Origin: Escherichia coli
GTDB taxonomy: Bacteria; Pseudomonadota; Gammaproteobacteria; Enterobacterales; Enterobacteriaceae
Length of the DNA stretch: 64,000 bases
Assembly: GCF_002854065.1 (NCBI RefSeq)
Contig: NZ_CP024147.1
Strand: one strand, 5' to 3'
Shown here: in pieces, positions 1,545 through 59,329 of the stretch
Layout: each line of letters begins with the position of its first letter
How positions within the stretch are numbered: the first letter of the stretch is position 1
Made by a program: the position numbers and the translations under genes
The notes under the pieces: generated by a model
Seen by the model: the letters and a program-made list of their open reading frames with translations, nothing else
Databases searched by the model: none
Told to the model about the DNA's origin: nothing

Positions 1545-2978
1545 TTAGCCTTTTTTATCCTGTTGGATCTTCTTGATAATGTTAGTGGTCGAGCAACCGT
1601 CTTCAAAGTTGAGCACCAACACTTCGCCGCCGTTGGCCCAGACTTCTTTACTCCCGGCGATCTCTTCCGGTTTGTAGTCACCGCCTTTCACCAGCAGGTC
1701 TGGCAGGATCCCGGCGATCAGACGCTGCGGCGTGTCTTCTTCAAACGACACTACCCAGTCGACCGCTTCCAGTGCGCCCAGCACAATCATACGCTGTTCG
1801 AGTGGGTTTACCGGGCGGGAATCCCCTTTCAGCCGTTTGGTGGAGGCATCGCTGTTGACGGCAACAATCAAGCGGTCACCCAGCTTGCGGGCATTTGCCA
1901 GATAAGAGACGTGCCCGGCATGTAGGATATCGAAGACACCGTTGGTCATTACCACTTTTTCACCACGTTTACGCGCTGCCGCTACAGCCAGCTTCAGTTC
2001 CTCTTCGGTCATCACGCCAAAGCCGGTATCTGCGCGTCCACGTACAGCGTTTTCCAGCTCGATCGGCGAAACCGTGGAGGTTCCCAGTTTGCCGACCACT
2101 ACGCCTGCCGCCGCATTAGCAAAGAAGCAGGCTTCTTCCAGCGAATTACCCGCTGCCAGCGTTGCCGCCAGGACGCCAATCACCGTGTCGCCCGCACCGG
2201 TAACGTCATACACTTCCTGCGCCTGGGTTGGCATATGCAACGGCGCTTTACCCGGTTGCAGCAGCGACATACCCTGTTCGGAACGGGTCACTAACAGAGC
2301 CGAGAGTTCGTAATCGGCAATCAGTTTCATGCCGCGCTCAACAATCTCTTCTTCGGTCTTACATTTACCGACAACAGCTTCAAATTCCGAGAGATTCGGC
2401 GTTAACAGCGTAGCGCCGCGGTAGCGCTCAAAATCGGTACCTTTTGGATCAATCAGCACCGGAACGCCCGCTTTACGCGCCAGTTGGATCATCTGCTGTA
2501 CGCTTGCCAGCGCACCTTTGGCGTAGTCAGAAAGCACCAGCGCGCCAATCGAACTCAGCGCCTGATTAATCCGCTCGTGCAGCGGCTGCGGATCAACACC
2601 TTCGAAACCTTCTTCAAAATCCAGACGGATCAGCTGTTGGTTGCGGGAAAGTACCCGTAATTTGGTGATGGTCGGATGCGTCGGTACAGAAACGAAGTCG
2701 CATTTGACGTTGACGTCGGCCAGAGATTTACTCAGCGCGCGCGCTGCATCGTCAATGCCCGTCAACCCGACCAGACGTGCATTAGCACCGAGAGAAGCGA
2801 TATTCATCGCCACGTTAGCCGCGCCGCCCGGACGTTCTTCGATGGTATTCACTTTAACCACGGGCACCGGCGCTTCCGGCGAGATACGACTGGTGGGGCC
2901 GTACCAGTAACGATCCAGCATCACATCACCAACCACCATCACTCCTGCACGTTCAAACTCTGGCAGCGTTACTTTCAT
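1545..2978 (-). CDS. hldE: Bifunctional heptose 7-phosphate kinase / heptose 1-phosphate adenylyltransferase
   Basis: 477 aa ORF, N-terminus [27 protein letters not shown] matches recalled HldE. Confidence 0.95.
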
Positions 2979-3025
2979 TCCTGTCTCCTGAGAGATTCAA
3001 AATTTGCGCGCGATAATACCATACT

Positions 3026-5866
3026 TCATTCTTCCACCAGCCACTTCTGCCAGCTTGCCCGCACCAGTTCACGCTCTGCGGTGAAGCAATCCTCCGACAC
3101 ATGGCCCGGCAATTCCTGTAATGCCAGATGATGAAGTTCATCGCGAAGCGTCGTGTAAGCACGGGTCAGCGCCATCGCTTCCTGCTCTTCCATAATGTCG
3201 TTTTGCGCCAGCAGTTCCAGAATGCGCACGTTGTCTGACCAGCGCGTTAACTTCGGTTTTTCATGAGCGTAGCGCAACACCAGATATTGGGTAATAAATT
3301 CGATATCGGTAATTCCGCCTTCATCGGCTTTGATATCAAAGCGATCGCGATGTTTATTGCCGAGATGAGCGCGCATTTTCTCGCGCATTTCCCGCACTTC
3401 TGTTTGCAGGGTTTTGCCTTCGCGCGGCAGCGCCATAATCTCACGACGCACCGCGTCAAAGTGCGCGGTGAGCTGCGGATCGCCGTACACTACACGCGCA
3501 CGCACCAGCGCCTGATGTTCCCACGTCCAGGCCTCGTTTTTCTGATAATCGGCAAATGCTTCTGCGGATGTCACCAGCATTCCCGCCGCCCCGGACGGAC
3601 GCAGTCGAGCATCCACTTCATACAAAATGCCGGAAGAGGTACGCGTACTGAACAGATGCATAATGCGTTGCGCCAGACGCAGATAAAACTGCCGCCCGTC
3701 GATTTCCCGCTCACCGTCAGTCATCGCATCCATTGGGCAATCATGGAGGAAGATAAGGTCAAGATCGGAACTGTAGCCTAACTCCCAGCCGCCCAGCTTG
3801 CCGTAGCCGACCACCGCAAAACCACGCCCTTCGCGTTCGTTCAGGTGATTCGGCTTACCGTAGCGGGCAACCATTTGAACCCACGCCTGCTGAACGACGG
3901 CATCTATCATGGCTTCCGCCAGCCAGGTTAAGTGATCGCTCACTTTCATCACCGGTAGCGTACCGGCGATATCCGCTGCGGCGATGCGTAACAGCTGCGC
4001 CTGTTTGAACTGACGCAGCGCCTCAAGCTGTTGCTCTTCGTCATCTTCCGGCACGCGCAGCAAATACTGGCGCAACTCATCGCGGTAGGCATCGGTCGCC
4101 GTCGGCTGGTAAAGGGTGTTTGGATCGAGCAATTCATCCAGCAATAATGGATAACGCGCCAGCTGGCTGGCAATCATCGGCGACGCGGCACACAGAGAAA
4201 TCAAATGTTTAAGCGCCGCGGGGAATTCACTGAGCAATTCTAAATAGGTGGTGCGGGTAACAATCCCCACCAGCAAGGCGGTAATGCGCGACAGCGTAAC
4301 GGCAGCGTCTTCACGCGCACAGACATCACTTAGCAGATGCGGCATCAGATGGTCGAGCACCTGACGTCCTCGCGGCCCGATGGTGCGCTTATCCAGCTCT
4401 TTGCGGAAATCGGCAATCAGCGTTAGCACCTGTTTGCGATCATCCTCGCTAAGATGCGCCAGCACTGGCGTAGTATCATCTTCCTGCAACGCATCCTGCC
4501 ACAGCTCACGCCACTGTTCCGACAGCGACTCTTCCTGAGTTTCACTTTCGTCGTCGCCAATCAATTCATTAAACACCCGGCGCACATTGGTCATATGTGC
4601 GGTCAGCGCCCCGGTCAATTGCGGCCAGTCAGCAAAGTCCATCGCCCACGCCAGCCGCGCACGATTAAGCTCATCAGAAGGAAGCGTCTGGGTTTGTTCG
4701 TCGTTAATGCTTTGCAGCAGGTTTTCCAGACGCCGCAGGAACAGATACGCCACTCGCAATTGTTCAGCATCGTTTTCAGAAAGCAGATGCAGCGCAGCAA
4801 TGGCGCTGAGCGTTGGCAGTAAAGAGTGCGATTGCAGCGACGGTTCGCGCCCGCCGCGAATGAGCTGGAATACCTGGACGATAAATTCAATTTCGCGAAT
4901 GCCGCCTGCGCCGAGTTTGATATTGTCGGTCAAACCACGTCGACGCACTTCACGGGCAATCATCCCTTTCATGTTGCGCAGCGACTGAATCACGCTGAAA
5001 TCGATGTAACGACGGAAAACAAACGGGCGCAGCATCGCACGCAACTCGTTAGCATAGACGCCTTCGCTATCGCCCATAATCCGCGCCTTGACCATCGCGT
5101 AACGCTCCCAGTCGCGCCCCTGCTCCTGGTAATAATCTTCCAACGCGGCAAAGCTCAGCACCAGCGGGCCACTTTCGCCAAACGGACGCAGCCGCATATC
5201 CACGCGATAGACGAAGCCATCCTGCGTTGGTTGATCCAGCACTTTAATCAGCCGCTGCCCCATGCGGGTAAAAAACTGCGCGTTATCCAGTTCCCGGCGT
5301 CCACCCTGCGTACAACCATGTTCCGGCCAGGCAAAAATCAGATCGATATCAGAGGAGAAATTCAGTTCCCCGCCGCCCAGCTTACCCATGCCTAAAATCA
5401 GCAGCGGTTGCGCTTCGCCCTGCGCATTGCACGGCGTTCCCCACTCGCGGCAGCAGGCGTCATATAGCCAGTCACGCGCCGCAACAATCAGCGTCTCCGC
5501 CAGATAGCTGAGCTGCTGCAATATGCTCTCTTTAGTAACCAGTGCCAGCGTTTGCGCCCAGGCGATACGTACCATGATGCGCCGACGGAACAGCCGCAGC
5601 TCGCGCATTAACCCGGCTTCGTCACTCACATTACTGAGCGCCTCCTGCAACCATGCAACGTAATGCTGCCATTCGTCGGCCTGCGGCGGTTGGCTTTCCA
5701 GTTCCGTCAGCCACTCTGGATGCGCAATCACGCTGTCCTGCACAAAATCACTGAAAGTAAGTACTGACTTCGCCTGTGCGCTAAGTGATTCCTCGGCTAA
5801 AGGCTCTGGCAGCCGCTCAACAACGGTCTGCCAGTACTGCTGTAACGGTGAAGAGAGCGGCTTCAT
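3026..5866 (-). CDS. glnE: Glutamine synthetase adenylyltransferase
   Basis: ORF-track frame runs to 6070, but the recalled GlnE N-terminus [22 protein letters not shown] begins at the ATG ending at 5866 (946 aa). Confidence 0.95.
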
Positions 5867-47469: not shown

Positions 47470-48678
47470 ATGGCAGTATTGACGGATACTAAAGCAAGGC
47501 ATATCAAACCTGATGACAAACCATTGCCCCATGGGGGAATTACAGGACTGACTCTTCATCCTTCTTCAGTAAAGGGGAGGGGTAAATGGGTTTTTCGTTA
47601 TGTAAGTCCGGTGACACAAAAAAGGCGTAATGCTGGATTGGGAACTTATCCTGAGGTCAGTATTGCTGAAGCTGCACGTACTGCCCGGATAATGCGAGAG
47701 CAACTTGCTGCAGGTGATGATCCTCTGGAGATTAAAAAGGCTGAAGCTGAAAAAGTTGTTATCCCAACATTTGCCGATGCAGCCCGGCGTGTACATGCAG
47801 AATTGTCACCGGGATGGGAAAACCCAAAGCATGTCAGGCAGTGGTTGTCGACGCTTGAAAATTACGTGTTTCCTCAACTGGGAGCAAAAACGCTGGATAC
47901 GATTACGGCTGCGGACGTGGCAGAGACACTGCGTCCAGTCTGGTTGACCTTATCAGAAACGGCAAGCCGGGTTAAACAGCGCATTCATGTTGTTATGCAG
48001 TGGGGCTGGGCGCATGGTTTTTGTGTGGCGAATCCTGTTGATGTGGTTGATCATTTGCTTCCACAGCAATCAAGAGGACGTGATGAACACCAGCCGGCAA
48101 TGCCCTGGAGGCAGTTACCGCTTTTTGTGGCGACCAGTGTGTATACAGATGAACCTTATAATGTTACCCGGGCACTGTTATTAATGGTGATACTGACAGC
48201 AACCCGCTCGGGCGAAGCAAGGGGAATGCGCTGGGCTGAAATTGATTTTCATAAGCGGATATGGACGATACCCGCAGAAAGAATGAAAGCCAGGATACAG
48301 CATCGTGTTCCTTTATCCCGACAGGCCATTCACGTTCTGGAAAATATACGTGGTCTGCATGACGAACTGGTGTTTCCTTCTCCCAGAAAGCAGCAGATCC
48401 TTTCAGATATGGTGTTGACGAGTTTTCTGCGTAAAAAGAAGGCCATCAGTGATATACCCGGACGAGTGGCTACAGCACATGGTTTTCGTTCAACATTCAG
48501 GGACTGGTGTAGCGAACAGGGATATTCGCGGGATTTGGCGGAAAGGGCGCTTGCCCATACGCTGAAAAATAAGGTTGAGGCGGCATATCACCGGACTGAT
48601 CTGCTGGATCAGCGTATACCGATGATGCAGGCATGGGCGGATTATGTGATGTCTCAGATTATGGAAAACCAGCGATGA
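47470..48678 (+). CDS. Tyrosine recombinase / integrase (internal to island)
   Basis: 402 aa; C-terminal catalytic region with HGFRSTFRDW and AYHRTD (R-H-R-Y type). Confidence 0.85.
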   Translation: MAVLTDTKARHIKPDDKPLPHGGITGLTLHPSSVKGRGKWVFRYVSPVTQKRRNAGLGTYPEVSIAEAARTARIMREQLAAGDDPLEIKKAEAEKVVIPTFADAARRVHAELSPGWENPKHVRQWLSTLENYVFPQLGAKTLDTITAADVAETLRPVWLTLSETASRVKQRIHVVMQWGWAHGFCVANPVDVVDHLLPQQSRGRDEHQPAMPWRQLPLFVATSVYTDEPYNVTRALLLMVILTATRSGEARGMRWAEIDFHKRIWTIPAERMKARIQHRVPLSRQAIHVLENIRGLHDELVFPSPRKQQILSDMVLTSFLRKKKAISDIPGRVATAHGFRSTFRDWCSEQGYSRDLAERALAHTLKNKVEAAYHRTDLLDQRIPMMQAWADYVMSQIMENQR

Positions 48679-48901
48679 AATCACATCTCACAGATTTGCA
48701 GATGTCGTCTGTAATCACGAAAAATATACTTATTGAGTTATAATGCTTGTTTGTCTGATATTTGCAATGACATAAATGTAAAAATAATACGTAATATTGT
48801 AGTTTATAAATTGAATGATAAAAACAATGCCAGTTTGTAACCGATGTCTGGCATTGTTTCAGATATTCAGGTTGGTAACTGAATGATAAAAGACGGGAAC
48901 T

Positions 48902-49254
48902 TTAATTTTTTGTAGTTATGTTCCATATTTTAGTCTGTTCTTCATTTCTGTACTTATTCAGCTTATGGTCCCAACAGACTATAAACATTCCACGCTCCAT
49001 TATCGGGATGTTTGCCTCATTTGCTAATTCACAAGGTGTAATCGCGTCACCGATATAAATGATTTTTTGGCCGATTGAATAATCAATTACGATTTTTTTC
49101 TGTTCTGCAAGTATATCAAGTGCTTCATCAAGAACACATTTATTCCTGAGAGCATATGGACCATATTGCAGTATATGGCTTTTTTGATATTCGTATCCTT
49201 TTACCCGGATGATATTTTCTCTGAGCCATTTATCCAGTTTTTCTGCAGGAGATA
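48902..49254 (-). pseudogene. 5'-truncated gene remnant (about 117 C-terminal codons) ending at the IS903 boundary
   Basis: Open frame without a start: ...LSPAEKLDKWLRENIIRVKGYEYQKSHILQYGPYALRNKCVLDEALDILAEQKKIVIDY...NITTKN. Confidence 0.4.
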
Positions 49255-50311
49255 GGCTTTGTTGAATAAATCGAACTTTTGCTGAGTTGAAGGATCAGAT
49301 CACGCATCTTCCCGACAACGCAGACCGTTCCGTGGCAAAGCAAAAGTTCAAAATCACCAACTGGCCCACCTACAATAAAGCCCTCATCAACCGTGGCTCC
49401 ATAACTTTCTGGCTGGATGATGAAGCTATTCAGGCCTGGTATGAGTCAGCAACACCTTCTTCACGAGGCAGACCTCAGCGCTATTCTGACCTTGCCATCA
49501 CGACTGTGCTGGTCATTAAACGCGTATTCAGGCTGACCCTGCGCGCTGCGCAGGGCTTTATTGATTCCATTTTTTCTCTGATGAACGTTCCGCTACGCTG
49601 CCCGGATTACAGCTGTGTCAGCAGGCGGGCAAAGTCGGTTAATGTCAGTTTCAAAACGCCCACCCGGGGTGAAATCGCACACCTGGCAATTGATTCCACC
49701 GGGCTGAAGGTCTTCGGTGAAGGCGAGTGGAAAGTCAAAAAGCATGGCCAGGAACGCCGCCGTATCTGGCGTAAGCTGCATCTCGCCGTTGACAGTAAAA
49801 CACATGAAATCATCTGTGCAGACCTGTCGCTGAACAACGTTACGGACTCAGAGGCCTTCCCCGGGTTAATCCGGCAAACCCACCGGAAAATCAGGTCAGC
49901 CGCCGCCGATGGCGCTTACGATACCCGGCTATGTCACGATGAACTGCGGCGTAAGAAAATCAGCGCGCTTATCCCTCCCCGAAAAGGTGCGGGTTACTGG
50001 CCCGGTGAATATGCAGACCGTAACCGTGCAGTGGCTAATCAGCGAATGACCGGGAGTAATGCGCGGTGGAAATGGACAACAGATTACAACCGTCGCTCGA
50101 TAGCGGAAACGGCGATGTACCGGGTAAAACAGCTGTTCGGGGGGGCACTGACGCTGCGTGACTACGATGGTCAGGTTGCGGAGGCTATGGCCCTGGTACG
50201 AGCGCTGAACAAAATGACGAAAGCAGGTATGCCTGAAAGCGTGCGTATTGCCTGAAAACACAACCCGCTACGGGGGAGACTTACCCGAAATCTGATTTAT
50301 TCAACAAAGCC
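49255..50311 (+). mobile_element. IS903-group insertion sequence (IS5 family), 1057 bp, no target-site duplication
   Basis: 18-bp terminal inverted repeats ggctttgttgaataaatc / gatttattcaacaaagcc; flanks caggagata / actctgatc differ. Confidence 0.88.
49287..50255 (+). CDS. IS903-type DDE transposase
   Basis: 322 aa, ...TNWPTYNKALINRGSITFWLDDEAIQAWYE... Confidence 0.85.
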   Translation: MKDQITHLPDNADRSVAKQKFKITNWPTYNKALINRGSITFWLDDEAIQAWYESATPSSRGRPQRYSDLAITTVLVIKRVFRLTLRAAQGFIDSIFSLMNVPLRCPDYSCVSRRAKSVNVSFKTPTRGEIAHLAIDSTGLKVFGEGEWKVKKHGQERRRIWRKLHLAVDSKTHEIICADLSLNNVTDSEAFPGLIRQTHRKIRSAAADGAYDTRLCHDELRRKKISALIPPRKGAGYWPGEYADRNRAVANQRMTGSNARWKWTTDYNRRSIAETAMYRVKQLFGGALTLRDYDGQVAEAMALVRALNKMTKAGMPESVRIA

Positions 50312-50393
50312 ACTCTGATCGCAAAATTCGCTTTATGAACTACTTTAAAAACAAAGCGGTATGTGTTAAACATAATAAAGGACTAAATTTAAT

Positions 50394-50816
50394 TTGTATT
50401 TATCATTATATAAAGGTGATCTAATGATAGCAAAGGGTTATAAGCTCCCTCATGAATTTCCTCATGAATCCTTTATACAAGAAGTTCTTGAAGATTTTTT
50501 TGAAAGCGAAGGATATTCTATAATCGAAGAAAAACCGATAGATGTAAAATGTTCAAATGCAGACAAGAATGAAACTTGGATTATTGAAGTGAAGGGGAAA
50601 ACATCACAGATTGGGCTAGATTTCAAGACATGTTTAGGTCAGATTGTAATGCGAATGAATAATCCTGATTATATATATGCTATCGCTATGCCCGATATAG
50701 AACAGTACCACAAACAGGTAAACAAAGTGTCATCTAAAATTGCTGCCAAAATTAATTTAAACTGGATTTTTGTCAGCGACAAGGGAACTATTGAAATAAT
50801 TCGTAACTGTGATTAG
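50394..50816 (+). CDS. Hypothetical protein, 140 aa (possible PD-(D/E)xK nuclease-like motif)
   Basis: Isolated ORF between IS903 and IS3; segment PIDVK...ETWIIEVKGK resembles a D...E-x-K core; weak. Confidence 0.4.
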   Translation: MYLSLYKGDLMIAKGYKLPHEFPHESFIQEVLEDFFESEGYSIIEEKPIDVKCSNADKNETWIIEVKGKTSQIGLDFKTCLGQIVMRMNNPDYIYAIAMPDIEQYHKQVNKVSSKIAAKINLNWIFVSDKGTIEIIRNCD

Positions 50817-51091
50817 ACTCATCGTATTCTCTCGACACTCACCACTCTTTTTATTCGGAATAGGTGAGTGCCATACATTATATTTTTAAAAGTAGATAAC
50901 ATGTCGTTCATATCGACTTATAATTGATTTATTCATATGTAAGACATATACCTCCGTGTTTCCTTTCAGAGCAACTGGATGATAAATGATATCGCTGTTT
51001 TCTCGACTAACCCGATAGGATGCGGTATCTGAGCAATACACACTCAACACCCCACTTGAACTGATCCTACCCACGTAATATGGACACAGGC

Positions 51092-51958
51092 CTAAGCGAG
51101 GTTCTTGTTTTCAAATTGTTCCGGACTGAGGCCGCCACACCAACTGTGCCGCCGCCACCGATTGTAATCACATTCGATATAATTAAACACCGTTGCCCGC
51201 ATTATTTCCCGGCTGATAAAGTGTTCTCCATGGATACATTCCACTTTCAGCGAATGAAAGAAGCTTTCCACGCAGGCATTATCGTAGCAGCAACCTTTTG
51301 CGCTCATACTTCCACGCAGATTATGCCGCTTCAGTTGCGCCTGATAATCTGCTGAACAGTACTGGCCTCCACGGTCCGTGTGAACGATAACGTTCCGGGG
51401 CCTCTTACGCCGCCACAGCGCCATCTGCAGGGCATCGCAGGCCAGTTGCGCCGTCATGCGTGGCGACATTGACCAGCCAATAACGGCACGTGACCACAGG
51501 TCAATGACCACTGCCAGATACAGCCAGCCTTCATCTGTACGTAAGTACGTGATGTCTCCTGCCCACTTCTGGTTCGGGCCACTGGCGTAAAAATCCTGCT
51601 CCAACAGATTTTCTGACACAGGCAGGCCGTGTGCGCGGTAGCTGACCGGGCTGAACTTCCGGGAGGCCTTTGCCCTCAGTCCCTGACGGCGCAGGCTTGC
51701 CGCCACGGTTTTTACGTTAAAGGGGTAACCCTGAGCACGCAGTTCATCCGTCAGGCGTGGGGCACCGTAACGCTGTTTTGACCGGGTAAAAGCCGCGAGG
51801 ACAACGCTGTCGCAGTGTTGGCGGAACTGCTGACGCGTGCTTATCCTTGTCCGCCGCTGACACCACGTATACCAGCCGCTGCGGGCCACCCGGAGCACGC
51901 GGCACATTGCTTTGATGCTGAACTCAGCCTGATGTTTTTCAATAAAGACATACTTCAT
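51092..51958 (-). CDS. insF: IS3 OrfB (InsF), DDE transposase
   Basis: 288 aa [38 protein letters not shown]. Confidence 0.88.
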
Positions 51959-52254
51959 TTCAGGCGCTTCGCGAAGTATGTCGCGGCCTTTTGGAGGATA
52001 GCCAGCTCTTCATCCCGTTCTGCCAGCTGGCGTTTGAGACGTGCAATCTCGGTAGACATCTCCAGTTCACGTTCAGAAGACGTCTGCTGATTTTGCTGTT
52101 TACTGCGCCAGTTGTAGAGCTGTGATTCATACAGGCTGAGTTCACGGGCTGCGGCAGTAACACCGATGCGTTCAGCAAGCTTCAGGGCTTCACTGCGAAA
52201 TTCAGGCGAATGCTGTTTACGGGGTTTTTTACTGGTTGATACTGTTTTTGTCAT
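51955..52254 (-). CDS. insE: IS3 OrfA (InsE)
   Basis: [53 protein letters not shown]. Confidence 0.88.
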
Positions 52255-52319
52255 GTGAGTCACCTCTGACTGAGAGTTTACTCACTTAGCCGCGTGTCCA
52301 CTATTGCTGGGTAAGATCA

Positions 52320-52676
52320 AACAACCGCCAGCGCCTGATTGATGATTTTCAGGCTCAGCCTGGGTTTGGGGTGATTATTCTCTCTACGGTTGCTGTCGGG
52401 TTTGGCGTTAACGTCCAGAAAGCCAATCATGTGATTCATTTTACTCGCTGCTGGAATCCAGCCAAAGAAGATCAGGCTACGGATCGGGCGTATCGCATTG
52501 GGCAAACTAAAGATGTGTATGTCTATTACCCAACTGTGAGAGATACTGAAATCACAACATTTGAAGAAACTCTGGATAACCTCCTACAACGCCGACGAGC
52601 ATTGGCCAGAGATATGCTCTGCGCTACTCCCGATTTGAACTGTGGGGATTTTGAGACCATTTTGAAGGGAGCCTAA
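52320..52676 (+). pseudogene. C-terminal fragment of an SNF2/superfamily-2 helicase, split by IS3 and lacking its N-terminal domains
   Basis: ...IDDFQAQPGFGVIILSTVAVGFGVNVQKANHVIHFTRCWNPAKEDQATDRAYRIGQTKDVYVY (helicase motifs V-VI); in-frame upstream continuation across the IS3 duplication hits a stop at 51008. Confidence 0.6.
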
Positions 52677-53237
52677 CCGATATGAGCGGCAATACTACCA
52701 GTTGCCAAACCTGAAATAACACTTAGCTGTGATGATTCGCTATTACCTATCGATAGCTTCGGAAAACATAAATTAAAAATGCCCAGAGGAGTACTATTAT
52801 CGTTAGCATTACCCGAACGCCGTATTAACGGTTATTTATTGGTAAGTGCTACGTTCCATGGCAAGAGTTCATCAACAGGTTGGAAGGCCATTCCGGCAAA
52901 ACTCTCAGTATATGGCGCAGATACCATTCAGACAGCAGGTCCCGCTCAGCCCGTACAGTAGAGCGCCGTTCACTACCGTAATCGCTACCGAAGAACACAT
53001 TGATTGCCCCTCAATAATCCTGCTGTTAACATCAAAATTGTTGGTCGGGCTCGATTTATTTAATTGTGTAAACAGGGTCTCTCAGAGAAAGGCCCTTATG
53101 CATCACCTGACGTTAAAAGTCACTACACCCAAGATGACGTTCAAAGTGTCATAGTCCCCTGCGCTGAGGACAAAGCCACACGTTAACAACAAATCCACGC
53201 GATAACTTACGATGGTTCGGGCATAAGCCCCCATAAT

Positions 53238-53801
53238 TCAGTTATGTCGTGGTCGGCCGCGGTTACTTTTTTCGGGAAGCCTGCTACGGCCCAGAATAAT
53301 ACCGTGTTCTTTCTGATCCTGTTTAGCCAGGTAGCTGAGGGCGTAACGTAAGTCGTCTACCGCAGACTTATCACTATAGTGAATCACGTGATCGATACGC
53401 ACCGGGTATTTATCTTTAGCCCGGCACAGGTGAAAATAACCATCCCCTTCCGTGATCCGCCTCCAGATATCTCCCAGTTGCCTGGATATCTGATAAGAGT
53501 TCTTATGACGTTGCCCATCTAGGTAACCGATAAAATGAATATGAAGTCCCTTGTTTTGTGTATATTCCATTACCCAGTAATATCCCGCCAACATCGATTG
53601 GGTTTCGCTAAGTAAACGGTATATTTCCATACACATACTGTGCTTACAGGAATGCCCGAAACTGGGCGTGTCTTTCCTGTAGGCAAAATCAATTCTGAAA
53701 GGTAACAGTTTAGAAAAACGTTGAAACATACCGTCCATGTGTTCATTCACATCTTTCAGAATCGCGAAATTCATTTCGTAATTGGGATTGGCATTATACA
53801 T
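53238..53801 (-). CDS. YagK/YfjJ-family protein (inovirus Gp2-like, putative replication initiation)
   Basis: 187 aa, MYNANPNYEMNFAILKDVNEHMDGMFQRFSKLLPFRIDFAYRKD; family from memory. Confidence 0.55.
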   Translation of the reverse strand: MYNANPNYEMNFAILKDVNEHMDGMFQRFSKLLPFRIDFAYRKDTPSFGHSCKHSMCMEIYRLLSETQSMLAGYYWVMEYTQNKGLHIHFIGYLDGQRHKNSYQISRQLGDIWRRITEGDGYFHLCRAKDKYPVRIDHVIHYSDKSAVDDLRYALSYLAKQDQKEHGIILGRSRLPEKSNRGRPRHN

Positions 53802-54676
53802 TTTATAGTCCTTACTTTATAAAACTCACAGGAAGGTGGAATTACATAAATACTGAGAGTACAGAAACGCCGTACCACTGCATTAATAAACTGGGTAACC
53901 AGTATGCAGACAACCTGATAAAACTGTTTCTTATTACCTCATTACAGTAATGGGGGTAATACTTCAGAATACAGTGAGGCTCTCTTAAACAGAGGACCAG
54001 TAAGAATTACAATGGTAAAAACATACCCCATAGAATTAACTTTAAGGAAACACCATTCAATCACTTAAAGGAAGTAATCTGACATTCACAAAAGTCAGTA
54101 TCGGGTAGCTACAGGCAACACCGCTATTGATACTCCCGCACCATTAAGTAAAAACATCAACTCAGCTTAAGGCCTCTACAGATATTTAATCTCCACCATA
54201 AACAATAACGGAGCTATAACGTACGAACCAGACACACATTCAATGATTAACTTTCTCAATATTACACTATGAGAAAGTGACATAATTTAACATATAACTA
54301 AACAACATACACTACTCACTGATGTATATACATCACATACCTACAGACTAAGCAGAATGGTCAGCATAAAGAGGAGCGACAATACGATAAAAAGAGATAA
54401 AACAATATAACAGATCACATAACTCCCACTAATAATACTAATTAACCTAAATTATTTATTGAACACGAGAACAATGAGGGAACCTCCTCATCTAGGACTA
54501 AAGCCAGCAATATCCTGAGCAACACTCTATCCAATAGTAAATAATGGTTATACCAGTTATATTTGCTGACTGACCTGTACCAGAGTTCTGTAATACAACA
54601 ACGCTGACATGGTAAAGGCATTAGTCTCCTCCGCAAGTAGCAGAGGAGACTATATGTTACTCAACGATTAAGTCGT

Positions 54677-56110
54677 TCAGAGGTCAAAGTTAGGTGCGAC
54701 ATACCACGTTTTTCCCTCAATAACCGGTACAACTCTGTTTTGTTCATACAGTAAATCCAGTAACCAATTGATTTTATCCTTTTTCCGGAAACGGTTCGGA
54801 CCACGCTGTAAAATGTCATTTTTTTTCATACAGGGGATCCCCTTCTCAATGCAATAGCTTTTTATCCAGTTAAAAAGTTCAAGCTCCTCTGGAATGAGTC
54901 GCACAGGTACGGTCAGGGCAGAGTTTTCAAACGTTAACGGACTGGATAACCGAACATACTCATTACCATACCATATTGCTAATTCTCTCGCCATTTCAGC
55001 AGTGTAGGGGGAAATGTCACCTTCCTCACCGCTAAAATGGTGAATAAGTCCTGCCAGTCTTGCCATATACTCTGCATTTTTAGCAGCATATTCTCTGAAG
55101 TCTCTTAAAGGCCCCAGAACCGACATCTTCGATTCCACATCGTTGTAATAGTCCGTCCAGATTCTGGCTGCCTGAGGAGAAAAGTGAAGGCAACGCCGCT
55201 CTCCCCTCATCGCCAGGCTTTCATCAATGAGTTCATTTATCCTCTGTTCAAACAAATCCTGATACTGTGATGAATAATTATCTCCTGTTATTATCCTTGT
55301 CCCCTGCGTTGATGTTGGTTGACACATCAAAAACCTTGCATGATGTCCCGACGTTTTCACAAGTTCTTTTTTTCGTGTACAAAAACCTTTGTGGTAAACA
55401 TCAGGCTGAACCATCACCGATATCGTCAGTCTTGGTTCCTTCAAAAAAATTCCGGGAGATGATTTCCTGTCGATGAAAAGAGAACCACCATCCCACAAAG
55501 AGTTAAGTATTCCCAGTTTACTCATTGCCCGGCTGTCAAAAATTATCCCACCTTCACTGGATACAAGAGCAAAAGAGCGATTGCTATCAGAATAATATTT
55601 TAACATTCCCTCTATCGTTGTATCATTAAAAATTGTTCGATGTATCTGTGGTGGAACAGGACACTTATTCAGATGTGTTTTAAGCTCTGATTCTGTTGTC
55701 TTATAATCTTTACCGGCACGAATCTCTTTATGAAGTTTTGACTCCAGTGCTTTTTGTTTTTGCTCCCATATTTCCTTTTCTGTACTGTAATTCTCAACCA
55801 GTTTCGCGTATTCTTCCGCCAGGGCTTCATCCCTGAGATAAAATGCTTTCATAAACACTTTATCCACGGTCGTTTTCCTTTCACCAGAATCAGCCAGAAT
55901 CATAGAGTAAATATTAGAGGACCCACGTAAATTTCCTGGCCTGCACACATCAACCTGATTCTGACAGGCAATTGACATCGCTGTTAATGCTGCAGTTATC
56001 GCCATAGCTATAGGTGTCTGTGTATTCTTTTGAGTTTCAATTATTGCATTTCTCGCCAGCGGTGGCATTGCATATATCGGACAAGGATTTTCTGGTGCAA
56101 GTAAGCACAT
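54677..56110 (-). CDS. YfjI-like DUF3987 protein (putative primase/replication protein of P4/PICI-like elements)
   Basis: Start chosen at MCLLAPENPCPIY by alignment with the duplicated 5' fragment; family from memory. Confidence 0.55.
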   Translation of the reverse strand: MCLLAPENPCPIYAMPPLARNAIIETQKNTQTPIAMAITAALTAMSIACQNQVDVCRPGNLRGSSNIYSMILADSGERKTTVDKVFMKAFYLRDEALAEEYAKLVENYSTEKEIWEQKQKALESKLHKEIRAGKDYKTTESELKTHLNKCPVPPQIHRTIFNDTTIEGMLKYYSDSNRSFALVSSEGGIIFDSRAMSKLGILNSLWDGGSLFIDRKSSPGIFLKEPRLTISVMVQPDVYHKGFCTRKKELVKTSGHHARFLMCQPTSTQGTRIITGDNYSSQYQDLFEQRINELIDESLAMRGERRCLHFSPQAARIWTDYYNDVESKMSVLGPLRDFREYAAKNAEYMARLAGLIHHFSGEEGDISPYTAEMARELAIWYGNEYVRLSSPLTFENSALTVPVRLIPEELELFNWIKSYCIEKGIPCMKKNDILQRGPNRFRKKDKINWLLDLLYEQNRVVPVIEGKTWYVAPNFDL

Positions 56111-56358
56111 AAATGCCTCTCTTTTCATTAATGGGTTAGTAAAGTAGCAGCAACTCCCGCTATAATAGCGAAAATAGCTGCTGTTCAGACCTAATGTTCT
56201 GAAAAATACAGAATATCTGTAGATCTGATGTTTAATAACCGATAAGGTTAATTCAGTTCAGACTGTGTTATTTACCACGAAATATCATTCATGTTTCTCA
56301 TTCTTAACACCTCCTAAAATTATTTCACTAACACCTTCCCCCCGGTCTTTTTCCTTTC

Positions 56359-56586
56359 TCAGGAATCAGCCAGAACCATAGTGTAAATATTAACGGGCCC
56401 ACGTAAATTTCCGGAGCTGCACACGTCAATCTGATTCTGACAGGCAATTGACATCGCTGTTAATAATGATGTTGTAGTCATAGCCAGAGATGCTTTTTCA
56501 TTTTGTTGAGTTTCAATTATTGCATTTCCAGTCATTGATGGTTGCGCATATACTGGATACGGAGTATCCGGTTTGATGTAAGACAT
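56359..56586 (-). pseudogene. Duplicated 5' fragment (75 codons) of the YfjI-like gene
   Basis: MSYIKPDTPYPVYAQPSMTGNAIIETQQNEKASLAMTTTSLLTAMSIACQNQIDVC... parallels the N-terminus of the 54677-56110 gene; part of a ~330-bp segmental duplication. Confidence 0.5.
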
Positions 56587-56691
56587 AAATATTCCCTTTT
56601 TTCGTAATGACTTTCGGTTATAGCAGCTATTTCCGCTACAATAGCAACAATAGCTGCTATACAGACTGGATATACTGAAAATACAAACAGT

Positions 56692-56940
56692 TCATCTGGT
56701 CTGTATCCAGCAGAGAAGGTCACTTAACAACCATCCGCAAGATTTCTTTCCGATAGACTTACGTGGTGGAAATTTTCCCTCCCGTTCAAGTTTCCACGCT
56801 TGCGTACGAGAAACTGACGTGATCTCATATCGTTCCTTTTCACGTACCAGTCTGTCGCATTCAATCCCATAAGCTTTCAAAATGACCAGACGCTGTTCAT
56901 CTGTTAATGGAAGCCACATACTACCCTCCTGATATATCAA
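56692..56940 (-). CDS. alpA: AlpA-family phage/island transcriptional regulator (winged-helix DNA-binding)
   Basis: C-terminal ...ITSVSRTQAWKLEREGKFPPRKSIGKKSCGWLLSDLLCWIQTR resembles AlpA/Vis; true start may be the internal Met at 56919. Confidence 0.65.
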   Translation of the reverse strand: MIYQEGSMWLPLTDEQRLVILKAYGIECDRLVREKERYEITSVSRTQAWKLEREGKFPPRKSIGKKSCGWLLSDLLCWIQTR

Positions 56941-57611
56941 TACTTTTTATTTCCGGCATGAGCATGAAATGACTAAGTTTCCCGGATAAACAATGAGTGA
57001 AAGTCACTGTCATTCATCCAGCCAACACCTTGCAAATAAAATGTAATACTATGATTTTTATAGGTCAAAATACTGAATTACAATGTTAAAATGGCTTTTA
57101 ATAGAAAAAATAAAGACATATAGAGCCAAATAAAAATAAACTACGACAAATAAAAACAAAAGATTAATATTAAAAATCCATTATGACGATTTTTATTGAC
57201 TAAAATCAGGTTGGGATATATAAATAAATCCATGTAAAATTCAAACAAGGCATGGAGGAGTCGCAGGAAGGTGAAATATTTCCATCTAATTTGTGATAAT
57301 CATCACAAAAATAAGCTACAACAAGCGGAGGAAAAGACAATCTGTTGCTGAACAGACAGAAGCAGGCTACGAATGATCGGAAAATGAAGCAAATACGCTT
57401 ATACAGAAGACGCAGGGGTAACTGACGGAGACAATCACAATCAGGAGAAAATGATCGTAAATAATGTATAAAATCTCAGGATATAAACAAATGTACACAA
57501 GCTATCCACGTAATCTGCGGCTGGCTCAGGATTAACGTTTCATTTCAGTGGACGACATCGATTCTGTCTGACAGTGGGCCAATATGTGGCAAGCAGAAAA
57601 CTTCTGACATC

Positions 57612-59243
57612 ATGGTAACTCGGACAATGCAACAAAAGTATGATCGTGTTTTATCTGGCGAATCCCATCCATTCCCTGGCATATACGAGGCGGTTTCCGA
57701 ACAACTCCTTTTGCTCATCTTTAAGGCTCGTCAGCTATATCAGAATCCAGAATATCGCCCCTGGTTTGAAGAACAGCACAGAGTTCTCTCTGCATTACGT
57801 GCTAATACAGAGCTCTTGAGAATATTTAGAGAACAAAGAAACGCGGAAGAACCAGAGCTTATTATTAAAGAATCTACATTACCCCTACTCACTAATTCTA
57901 ATCTTACAGATGCGCTTAATATTATGTGCCATTTATACAATGGTTTTGATGAAGGAAATATCAGTCTGAAAACCTGGGGGGCGATGCAAGAGGTACAGAC
58001 AACATCAACCTTTATCAGCCCGGGACCGAGAACCTGGAAAACACCTGAACTGGCAAAGTTTGTAGGAGATGATTTATTTAATATTCTGACTGAATGTAAA
58101 GCCTGGAGTTCACCAATTCCAGCAGAAACCCGACAGGGCTATTGCCATCAGGATCTGTCTGTTGCACACTCCTGCACCTCAGAGTTACTGGCACACCTGA
58201 ATCAATACCATGAAATTGATGAATCAGCAATACTTGCCAGAGTTATTGGTATGACGGTTAACGGATTCTACAAGAAAAATAATACAGACCTCCCAGAATG
58301 GCTATCCCCCTTTAAAGAGGAACATAAAATATTCAGAGATTGTCTGGAGCAAAAGACCGAGGATGTAATCAGACTGAAAGAACAACTGTTGAAAACAGGA
58401 CGTTCAGAATTCGTGAATAATTTGTGTCGGGTCGCCAACTGGTATGAAATTAAGTCAATATACGATGAATATGTCCGTCTTTATGCCAATGAAATCATTG
58501 GTTGGTTCAACAAAACCATGGAATATTTTAAACCAACAGATTTTATCCGATATACATGGAAATTCGCAACAGTTACTCCAGGTAAAGAGACAGAAACCAA
58601 GCATACAACTGCATGGGAAAAGGATTATTGCCAGATAACTATACAACGTGATGAACTTCTGAGATTGATTCACACGAATACCCTTCAGGATGCAGTAATT
58701 TATCTTTGCCATTGTCTGCAGAAGAAATACAAGAAATCATCCCAAAATGAGATAGAGTTTCCAGGAATAAAACCTCCGGCATCAGAGAGTGAAATTAATA
58801 TAACAGATAGTTTTGAATTTTATTCTCTCCTGGAGCTCAGTAAAGATAATGAGAGACGGCTGGAAACATTTCAAAAATGGTATGAAAAAAATAAAGTTTT
58901 GTTAGAAAGTCATAAACAAAAACGAACAGAGAAGATTGACGTTGCCGTACGACTTGTAGGGCTGAAAGCCTATGATCTGCATGAAGGGATTCCGGATAGT
59001 CCAAAACGAAAAGTTAAAGATGGCATAAATGAAGACATCAAAGCCGATACCAGTTTACGCCTGCCAAAGACAAATATAAGTGATACGTCGCTAAACCGTT
59101 ATCGCCGCACTGTTAAGGAGATTATCAATAACGAAATCGACGCATTCCTGTTGGAACAGAAGAAAAAAAATAAAAGATTTCCCTACAGTGAAGATAGAGA
59201 TGTGATTCGACCTTTATGGGGAAAATGCCTGACCGGGCAGTAG
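57612..59243 (+). CDS. Hypothetical protein, 543 aa, no recognisable domain (candidate novel cargo gene A)
   Basis: Long uninterrupted ORF in lower-GC DNA between alpA and the terminal integrase; I could not match any motif (no Walker A, no obvious nuclease or polymerase signature). Confidence 0.6.
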   Translation: MVTRTMQQKYDRVLSGESHPFPGIYEAVSEQLLLLIFKARQLYQNPEYRPWFEEQHRVLSALRANTELLRIFREQRNAEEPELIIKESTLPLLTNSNLTDALNIMCHLYNGFDEGNISLKTWGAMQEVQTTSTFISPGPRTWKTPELAKFVGDDLFNILTECKAWSSPIPAETRQGYCHQDLSVAHSCTSELLAHLNQYHEIDESAILARVIGMTVNGFYKKNNTDLPEWLSPFKEEHKIFRDCLEQKTEDVIRLKEQLLKTGRSEFVNNLCRVANWYEIKSIYDEYVRLYANEIIGWFNKTMEYFKPTDFIRYTWKFATVTPGKETETKHTTAWEKDYCQITIQRDELLRLIHTNTLQDAVIYLCHCLQKKYKKSSQNEIEFPGIKPPASESEINITDSFEFYSLLELSKDNERRLETFQKWYEKNKVLLESHKQKRTEKIDVAVRLVGLKAYDLHEGIPDSPKRKVKDGINEDIKADTSLRLPKTNISDTSLNRYRRTVKEIINNEIDAFLLEQKKKNKRFPYSEDRDVIRPLWGKCLTGQ

Positions 59244-59329
59244 ATCACTGAGGGGATAACAGCCCGGTTATCCCCTGTTTGTTCTGCTTCAGGTTGCCAG
59301 AGCTCTAGGAACACGAGGCAATCGGCAAA

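Follow-up and report, generated by a model that had tools for sequence, protein, structure and literature searches.

Gene order and two ORF-free tracts

We analysed two long tracts without open reading frames (ORFs) in a 64,000-nt stretch of an Escherichia coli genome (RefSeq assembly GCF_002854065.1, contig NZ_CP024147.1), which we call the window. An original prediction had described them as flanking a block of replication genes and alpA, and had proposed that they could hold a replication origin, non-coding RNAs or targets of H-NS silencing. Both tracts are present as described and their edges are gene boundaries (Table 1). They flank a block made up of alpA, a DUF3987 (YfjI) gene and an HUH Rep-like gene, in line with the setting that had been predicted. 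From its gene content we place the region at the integrase-proximal end of a CP4-57-like, AlpA-type integrative E. coli island, the gene set of which comprises int, hyp208, hyp543, alpA, the DUF3987 yfjI-family gene and the HUH Rep-like gp2-type gene. In the gene map of the window this module is read mostly from the minus strand.

Table 1. Genes and sequence features in and around the two tracts, numbered from the first letter of the window
Feature	Position	Strand	Description
Gp2/YagK-YfjJ-type gene (gp2-type)	53238-53801	-	187 aa; tract 1 is its upstream region
Tract 1	53802-54676		875-bp spacer from the yfjI-family stop (54677) to the gp2-type ATG (53801)
Segment adjacent to the ribosome-binding site (RBS)	53802-53836	-	ends …CCTTCCTGTGAGTTTTATAAAGTAAGGACTATAAA-ATG; best-conserved part of the leader
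Box-to-ATG stretch	53802-54431	-	630 nt; 40% T in sense; hairpin-prone, indel-rich, lineage-specific
Conserved box	54432-54452	-	ATTTAGGTTAATTAGTATTAT; last six bases TATTAT (54437-54432), -10-like
13-bp hairpin just past the yfjI-family stop	54622-54652	-	TAGTCTCCTC…GAGGAGACTA; 92% complementary; no T-run after it
yfjI-family DUF3987 gene	54677-56128	-	483 aa; PF13148, E 5e-85; relatives 'YfjI family protein' (RefSeq)
DUF3987 5' fragment ORF	56359-56586		75 aa; between alpA and the full yfjI-family gene
alpA	56692-56940	-	PF05930 Phage_AlpA, E 5e-13
Tract 2	56941-57611		671-bp divergent intergenic region, alpA (-) to hyp543 (+)
Conserved block	56960-56974		GAGCATGAAATGACT; beside the alpA start; identical in both tract-2 alleles
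Candidate sigma-70 promoter	57196-57224	+	TTGACT-17-TATAAA; toward hyp543; read from the sequence
Palindrome	57290-57309		TTTGTGA-TAATCA-TCACAAA; perfect; core TGTGA-N6-TCACA (57292-57307), the CRP consensus core
Small hairpin	57341-57356	+	TCTGTT-GCTG-AACAGA; downstream of a conserved GGAGG
hyp543	57612-59243	+	543-aa hypothetical; divergent from alpA; ATG at 57612; RefSeq relatives 'hypothetical protein'
hyp208	59330-59956		208-aa hypothetical; no Pfam or NCBIfam match
Integrase (int)	60056-61372		

When ATG, GTG and TTG are all accepted as start codons, the tracts yield the two longest gaps without an ORF of at least 60 aa in the window (671 and 640 bp); with ATG starts only, their gaps of 875 and 692 bp come second and third, behind one of 902 bp at 48679-49580. 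The caveat for tract 1 is a TTG-started ORF of 64 aa on the minus strand (54442-54636), which we rejected as coding, stop codons breaking it in 5 of 9 relatives. An ORF of 70 aa in a second allele of tract 2, described below, was rejected likewise and is absent from the allele of the window.

The strand compositional bias that had been reported is real, the value of each tract being reached by only about 0.5% of windows of the same size. On the plus strand, tract 1 has A.39, C.21, G.15 and T.25 (A+C.60), and tract 2 has A.405, C.16, G.18 and T.25 (A+G.59), so that the dominant bias in both is an excess of A over T (AT skew +0.22 in tract 1 and +0.24 in tract 2). Throughout the window, the sense strand of a gene has more T than A, and usually more G than C, at its four-fold degenerate sites; among plus-strand genes, hyp543 alone shows A>T there. 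Read in the minus sense, tract 1 has T.39 and G.21. Because the sign and size of its skew match those at the four-fold sites of minus-strand genes throughout the window, this skew carries no special signal, and we infer that it is the skew of unconstrained positions in transcribed units of the minus strand. A module-wide strand skew was also considered as a sign of single-stranded DNA replication and dropped, the same orientation-dependent skew being found in genes across the window. The GC content is 36.2% in tract 1 and 34.5% in tract 2 versus 49.1% for the window, and the island setting is AT-rich and horizontally acquired; from this AT-richness, H-NS silencing of the tracts is plausible. 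By eye we saw no GC-rich cos sequence of the lambda or P2 type in the tracts, for which no formal search was made.

Tract 1 and the box upstream of the gp2-type gene

Among 5426 complete E. coli genomes, tract 1 is found in 1583 at 80-97% identity and tract 2 in 347 at 91-100% identity, and neither is annotated in any of them. Given how widely they are retained in this species, the tracts are more than chance remnants. Tract 1 is in every case directly adjacent to the start of the gp2-type gene, including loci with a different neighbour on the other side. Among 50 related loci, its nhmmer profile matches only those of Escherichia, and no similarity to phage records was found. A pseudogene or mobile-element origin was rejected as well, a blastn search for distant matches among plasmids and phages having matched no phage and nothing but copies of the tract in Escherichia.

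Within tract 1 we identified a conserved box of 21 nt, for which the literature searches found no description. From the comparison with 34 Gp2-type loci of other species we derived the motif ATTWRGGTT(W)WTTARTRTWAT on the gene-sense strand. The box is unique in the window (0.01 expected), and in 560 kb of related loci all 44 boxes precede a Gp2-type gene and point in the same direction as that gene. The genera represented include Escherichia, Citrobacter, Klebsiella, Enterobacter, Hafnia, Serratia, Budvicia and Thorsellia, among others, and the proteins encoded next to the box are 34-95% identical. The coupling also holds for duplicated genes. In a locus of Enterobacter wuhouensis (L043, 2751-5298), two tandem Gp2-type paralogues, at 2944-3522 and 4726-5298, are separated by alpA and an ORF of 207 aa. 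Each has a box of its own upstream, the two boxes differing slightly, and the one before the second paralogue is the 44th. The loci without a box either have their upstream DNA cut by a contig end or an insertion sequence (IS), or belong to very distant relatives.

The 5' half of the box contains a dyad, AATT(T/A)AGGTTAATT (54438-54452), and the AATTAAGGTTAATT dyad is absent from group-2 boxes. The last six bases of the box resemble a -10 element, and in all 44 boxes the sequences TATTAT, TATAAT, and TGTTAT or TAATGT fit TAnnnT in one register or another. Past a variable stretch of 6 nt, a purine-AGT is conserved 7 nt after TATTAT. The folds of the box with 35 nt on either side, computed for 20 lineages, were weak and inconsistent, and gave no hairpin that would present it. 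We also observed that the dyad lies where the spacer between a weak -35 element and TATTAT would be, a spacer that would often measure 19-20 bp. A spacer of this length containing a dyad is the geometry typical of MerR-type activators. As AlpA is itself a member of the MerR-like/excisionase winged-helix group, it might control the gp2-type promoter, which is a speculative extension of this resemblance.

Two further observations concern the DNA at the box. IS66-family elements lie in the box, or within about 15 bp of it, in E. coli cq9 (L001, 3780-6740) and in Escherichia sp. MOD1-EC7003 (L011, 1-540); one of the two insertions replaces the left edge of the box and the other abuts TTATTAATGGGAG on its right, which may reflect a preferred target or shared ancestry of the two loci. 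In addition, draft or metagenome contigs end 100-280 bp upstream of their Gp2-type genes, approximately at the site of the box, in L021, L022, L044-L046, L049 and L051, which suggests that assemblies break there because the region is a repeat present in several copies.

The distance from the box to the ATG varies widely. Most genera have 102-250 nt and two have about 333 nt; in the Escherichia family of tract 1 the distance is 567-771 nt (631 nt in the window), and in four other loci it is 925-1019 nt. In the short-leader lineages (102-250 nt), compensatory changes preserve a hairpin that sequesters the Shine-Dalgarno sequence, implying transcription of this region. The long leaders of different lineages are not homologous to one another, and all of them are ORF-poor and T-rich.

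Within Escherichia the bulk of tract 1 evolves at a rate close to that of synonymous sites. Its pairwise identity is 84-91% versus 86-93% at third-codon positions of the flanking genes, the pairwise identity of the leader is 0.72-0.92 versus 0.897 at the third-codon positions of gp2, and the variants differ by modular indels of 9-90 nt. The last 38 nt before the gp2-type ATG are nearly invariant in 11-12 loci (mean pairwise identity 0.956). The bulk of tract 1 thus behaves like a near-neutral spacer, the exceptions being these last ~40 nt and the box. It folds more stably than shuffled sequences (z = -2.6 on the minus strand and -3.9 on the plus strand). When 11 leaders were examined for conserved RNA structure with RNAalifold, the covariation term was only -1.57 kcal/mol and 6 of 97 pairs were compensatory, the leader hairpins showing mismatches rather than compensation. 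The hairpin just past the yfjI-family stop is kept in 9 E. coli variants with small changes and was not called as an intrinsic terminator.

The repeats and protein-binding motifs expected of a classical origin were not found. Tandem Repeats Finder, at a minimum score of 30, reported no array in either tract and a repeat search gave only short matches in two copies, so that iterons are not borne out; neither tract contains a TTATCCACA-like DnaA box, with up to 1 mismatch allowed, or a match to the IHF consensus. The suggested non-coding RNAs found no support either. A scan of positions 48000-64000 against Rfam 15 gave no match in the tracts at E<=1, and four related loci gave none at E<=0.1. 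In strain Sakai the copy of tract 1 lies at about 1,377,400-1,378,250, coordinates at which no small RNA (sRNA) from the Hfq cross-linking and cDNA analysis (CRAC) and no EcOnc entry is listed (Tree et al. 2014). Esr41 and other sRNAs of enterohaemorrhagic E. coli (EHEC) were rejected as occupants of the tract, Esr41 lying between z1181 and z1182, elsewhere in the O157 island.

The protein encoded downstream of the box carries the name 'inovirus-type Gp2 protein' in its RefSeq relatives. Its Pfam matches, to PF23343 (REP_ORF2-G2P) and PF11726 (YagK_YfjJ_C), are both weak and under the cut-off, and the sequence search of the PDB and NCBIfam returned nothing significant. In 24 homologues (34-95% identity), H87 and H89 (H-I-H), Y153, Y157 and L158 are at least 90% conserved and A159 and K160 are invariant; the HUH and YxxxYxxK (Y-x-x-S-Y-L-A-K) motifs are intact in the protein of the window. 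A pattern of this kind, H-I-H with Y-x-x-S-Y-L-A-K, marks two-tyrosine rolling-circle initiators, phiX174 gpA being an example. The best fold matches in the PDB to an AlphaFold2 model of the protein (predicted local distance difference test score, pLDDT, 90) are the HUH nuclease domains of parvovirus NS1 and of adeno-associated virus Rep, which are weak (E 9e-4, template modelling score 0.3-0.38). By motifs and model, the protein is likely to be an HUH two-tyrosine rolling-circle Rep-like nuclease. Literature searches on the function of YagK/YfjJ turned up nothing.

Tract 2 and the rest of the island

Tract 2 exists in a second, divergent allele, found in E. coli 07_3636 and in Escherichia albertii (L006 and L010), which is only 57% identical to that of the window, while the flanking genes of the same strains are 82-86% (alpA) and 82% (hyp543) identical. 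Against this background the conserved elements stand out. The half-sites of the CRP-type palindrome are invariant, and only its spacer differs (CAAAGA in L006 and CCAAGA in L010). Its position is conserved as well, ~300 bp from the start of hyp543 and 350-380 bp from the start of alpA, and this dyad is the sole match of its kind in the window (0.05 expected). The divergent allele has TTGACA-17-TAGTAT in the same columns as the candidate sigma-70 promoter, and in place of the small hairpin it has TGTCATT-GA-AATGACA, so that the stem is kept and the sequence changed. Several further blocks are conserved in the last 100 nt before the hyp543 ATG. The GAGCATGAAATGACT block is probably part of the alpA leader, given its place beside the start of the gene, which is either a TTG at 56940 or, following the RefSeq annotation of close relatives, an ATG at 56919.

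We therefore describe tract 2 as a putative divergent promoter region of alpA and hyp543, the conservation being observed directly and the roles being suggested by it. A start of hyp543 transcription near 57231-57233 would give a purine-rich leader of ~380 nt. The CRP-type palindrome would then lie ~60 nt downstream of the predicted start, in a leader that would also include the small hairpin, and tract 2 also has an AT-rich core. The segment 57000-57300 has 27% GC, and such AT-richness alone is not specific to an unwinding region. The fold z-scores of tract 2 are unremarkable (-1.8 and -0.1).

For the remainder of the island, the searches of Pfam and NCBIfam with hyp543 gave zero matches, and in O157 the gene at its position is annotated 'membrane protein' (ECs_1300). 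The DUF3987 yfjI-family gene is a primase/helicase-like core gene of AlpA-type islands. Its 5' end has been copied by a tandem duplication of 476 bp (55839-56205 and 56315-56681), which gave rise to the 75-aa fragment ORF and which must be old and retained, because this fragment is annotated in many E. coli genomes. The duplication also copied an upstream palindromic box, TAGCAGC…GCTGCTA (56145-56182 and 56621-56661), which looks like an operator for the DUF3987 gene.

To the left of the gp2-type gene the distal part of the island in the window consists of IS3 and IS5 debris. In several strains, among them O157:H7 and other E. coli (L002, L006 and L054), the annotation 'TOTE conflict system archaeo-eukaryotic primase domain-containing protein' is given to the gene that follows the gp2-type gene, and in K-12 the AbpAB defence genes occupy the matching position; from these placements, the site after the gp2-type gene looks like a hotspot for cargo or defence genes. 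Relatives of the window have ypjA and ypjCB remnants close by, which belong to the same chromosomal neighbourhood as CP4-57. In E. coli PE15, NIID080884 and CM IVRI KOL-1 (L052, L053 and L054), the series hyp208-hyp543-alpA-yfjI-gp2 adjoins tRNA-Thr/proA with no integrase between hyp208 and the tRNA. In the window the integrase follows hyp208, and ARAGORN found no tRNA beside the integrase. Just past the integrase, 61373-61668 is another ORF-free, A-rich stretch of 296 bp (A.38, AT skew +0.22), which may be the end of the island or its attachment region. Two Rfam matches to naRNA4, which is similar to repetitive extragenic palindromic elements, lie at 62542-62617 (46.5 bits) and 63385-63444 (41.2 bits), both below the gathering score of 59.5.

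Interpretation and comparison with known systems

We interpret both tracts as cis-regulatory spacers of a CP4-57-like island, with the box serving as promoter or operator and followed by a leader, and we give this interpretation a probability of roughly 0.55; the functional labels are drawn from conservation and from matches to consensus sequences. Tract 1 would be the upstream control region of the HUH Rep-like gene, laid out as ~220 bp of yfjI 3' flank with its hairpin, then the box, then the long stretch to the ATG. The box would act as the cognate cis-element of this gene family, most likely as its core promoter, with TATTAT as the -10 element and a start at G54425, and the dyad would be placed where a regulator could bind between -35 and -10. 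The transcript would then carry a U-rich, hairpin-prone untranslated leader of ~625 nt between about G54425 and the ATG, only the RBS-adjacent part of which is constrained, while the remainder changes about as fast as synonymous sites and has frequent indels. A paralogue in K-12 is consistent with a promoter at this position: upstream of yagK we find ATTTAGA...TAGGTATTATATAAT, and a constitutive sigma-70 promoter, TTTAGA-16-TATAAT, flagged 'HNS', was reported in the yagK-yagL spacer (Shimada et al. 2014, PMC3946193), on the evidence of in-vitro RNA polymerase binding in genomic SELEX (systematic evolution of ligands by exponential enrichment) at the paralogue rather than at the locus of the window.

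Several results weigh against this interpretation. A plain promoter would not require 20-21 nt to be nearly identical across genera, as they are here; recognition of the site by the Rep protein itself would fit. The -35 candidates, identified by inspection, are weak and variable and often have a spacing of 19-20 bp (TTCAAT-20 in the window, ATGACA-19 in L012). A generic promoter scan found 13 sites versus 13.7 in shuffled sequence and listed neither the box nor the tract-2 promoter, the latter being omitted because the scan requires T at the sixth -10 position. A neutrally evolving leader of 625 nt is an odd thing to maintain, and leaders of 570-1020 nt arose in at least 4 non-homologous lineages, which hints at a requirement of length or composition. 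In tract 2, the palindrome could serve an island-encoded regulator rather than CRP.

The alternative that survives best takes tract 1 for a rolling-circle origin region like the intergenic region of the Ff phages, with the box as the double-strand origin nicked by the HUH Rep-like protein; we consider it less probable than the promoter interpretation. After excision driven by AlpA and Int, the circular island would be copied by rolling circle, and the T-rich stretch would be a single-strand origin or an enhancer. In keeping with such an origin, HUH and YxxxYxxK are kept in all 24 homologues and the predicted fold is HUH-like, box and gene are inherited together as a cassette, with one box for each paralogue, the conservation of the box far exceeds that of the protein, and both strands of tract 1 fold more stably than shuffled sequence. 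The box usually lies 100-250 nt upstream of the gene, and in Ff the nick site is ~225 nt upstream of gene II. Satellites of the PICMI type, which have the same int/alpA/DUF3987 core, replicate as concatemers (PMC10803314). An origin of this kind sits less well with the absence of a conserved stem-loop or inverted repeat presenting the box, though not every HUH system needs a hairpin, and with a leader whose hairpins are mismatched and which is neither conserved between lineages nor constrained within one. Moreover, no phage or inovirus with similar DNA was found, and the protein matches in phage records are only distant and lie in Acinetobacter. In a 4.7-kb Acinetobacter plasmid, a distant Gp2-type gene (25% identity) is found next to the gene of a separate replication initiator, so this relative need not be the Rep of its replicon; a role of the Gp2-type protein as sole Rep of a small plasmid was rejected on the same plasmid, which has its own Rep. 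Literature searches turned up no replication of CP4-57-type islands. Of the replication origin that had been proposed, the classical type is thus not borne out, and the rolling-circle type stands only as a possibility, through the Rep-coupled box.

The promoter and Rep-site readings of the box are compatible and not exclusive. In a broader form, which we consider doubtful, the box would be the recognition and nick site of an uncharacterised group of island HUH two-tyrosine Reps (Gp2/YagK-type) and at the same time a promoter controlled by AlpA or Rep; the islands would replicate by rolling circle after excision, and the T-rich leaders of 600-1000 nt would be single-strand origins or length-dependent regulators.

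It is improbable that the tracts are functionless decayed DNA, dead genes or scars of mobile elements that merely persist. The bulk of tract 1 does evolve like third-codon positions with many indels, the island is itself degraded on the side of the IS3 and IS5 debris, an IS66 element has entered the tract without apparent penalty, and the authors of the PICMI study report large non-coding regions with small ORFs or pseudogenes (PMC10803314). However, conservation of the box extends across genera and its coupling to the gene is without exception, the tract-2 footprints survive in a background of 57% identity, the plasmid and phage collections show nothing gene- or IS-like in tract 1, and the RBS segment is 96% conserved. 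The check on conservation in related elements that the original prediction had called for therefore gave a positive answer, with elements kept across divergent alleles in tract 2 and across genera in the tract-1 box, and simple decay, its null explanation, is refuted for parts of each tract.

Trans-acting sRNAs or a large structured non-coding RNA are very improbable, for although both tracts are long, conserved and unannotated in hundreds of genomes, tract 1 has low fold z-scores and EHEC O-islands are rich in sRNAs (PMC8565820), this explanation is opposed by the Rfam result, the few compensatory pairs, the neutral rate of substitution with modular indels, the fold z-scores of tract 2, the Hfq-CRAC data at the Sakai copy, the location of Esr41 elsewhere in the island, and the lack of a conserved terminator-like hairpin.

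The tracts are thus ordinary intergenic control regions in kind, with two previously undescribed cis-elements, the box and the CRP-type dyad. About 30% of complete E. coli genomes carry the module, including O157:H7 in its SpLE1/OI-43/48 island, and despite this frequency neither the spacers nor the role of the YagK/YfjJ/Gp2-type protein has been annotated or studied. The box, coupled to a gene family across Enterobacterales, and the CRP-type dyad, in the control region of alpA, are precise handles on how such islands are switched on. With modest probability, the box marks the rolling-circle origin of a class of islands that is very common in E. coli. If it is a nick site, islands of the CP4-57/SpLE1 type, including the tellurite/urease island of O157, would replicate by rolling circle after excision, and an HUH protein acting as replication initiator would bear on the mobility of the islands and on the spread of virulence and defence cargo. 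If neither site is active, the tracts would be ordinary AT-rich intergenic DNA.

Of the known systems, CP4-57 of K-12 is closest in layout, with an integrase, a divergent hypothetical gene, alpA, the DUF3987 gene yfjI and a YagK/YfjJ-family gene in the same order. It differs in its spacers, which measure 152 bp (yfjI-yfjJ) and 44 bp (yfjH-alpA) versus 875 and 671 bp in the window; YfjJ of K-12 is too distant to appear among the homologues, and upstream of its gene there is only a partial box-like word, GATAGGTAATATATAGG. The yagK-yagL spacer of CP4-6 also lies upstream of a YagK/YfjJ-family gene and contains ATTTAG…TAGGTATTAT-ATAAT, similar to the two box halves, but these are 8 nt further apart than in the box and the spacer has 271 bp versus 875.

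The intergenic region of Ff (f1/M13) is long, ORF-free and hairpin-rich, lies directly upstream of the rolling-circle initiator gene II and has a T-rich viral (sense) strand. The likeness of tract 1 to it is one of position only: tract 1 has no sequence similarity to phage records and no conserved hairpins, and it lies in a chromosomal island without virion genes. In rolling-circle plasmids of the pT181 and pMV158 type, rep is preceded by a conserved cis-site and a structured control leader, and these leaders are short, with countertranscripts and attenuators; in tract 1 we found no conserved antisense promoter-terminator pair.

The PICMIs are 6-kb Vibrio elements situated beside fis, in which no Gp2/YagK-type HUH gene and no box have been reported. 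They are built on an int, alpA and DUF3987 primase core, contain 'Large non-coding regions', have AlpA as master activator and replicate as concatemers (Barcia-Cruz et al. 2024, PMC10803314), and it is this core of int, alpA and DUF3987 that the island of the window shares with the PICI/PICMI satellites.

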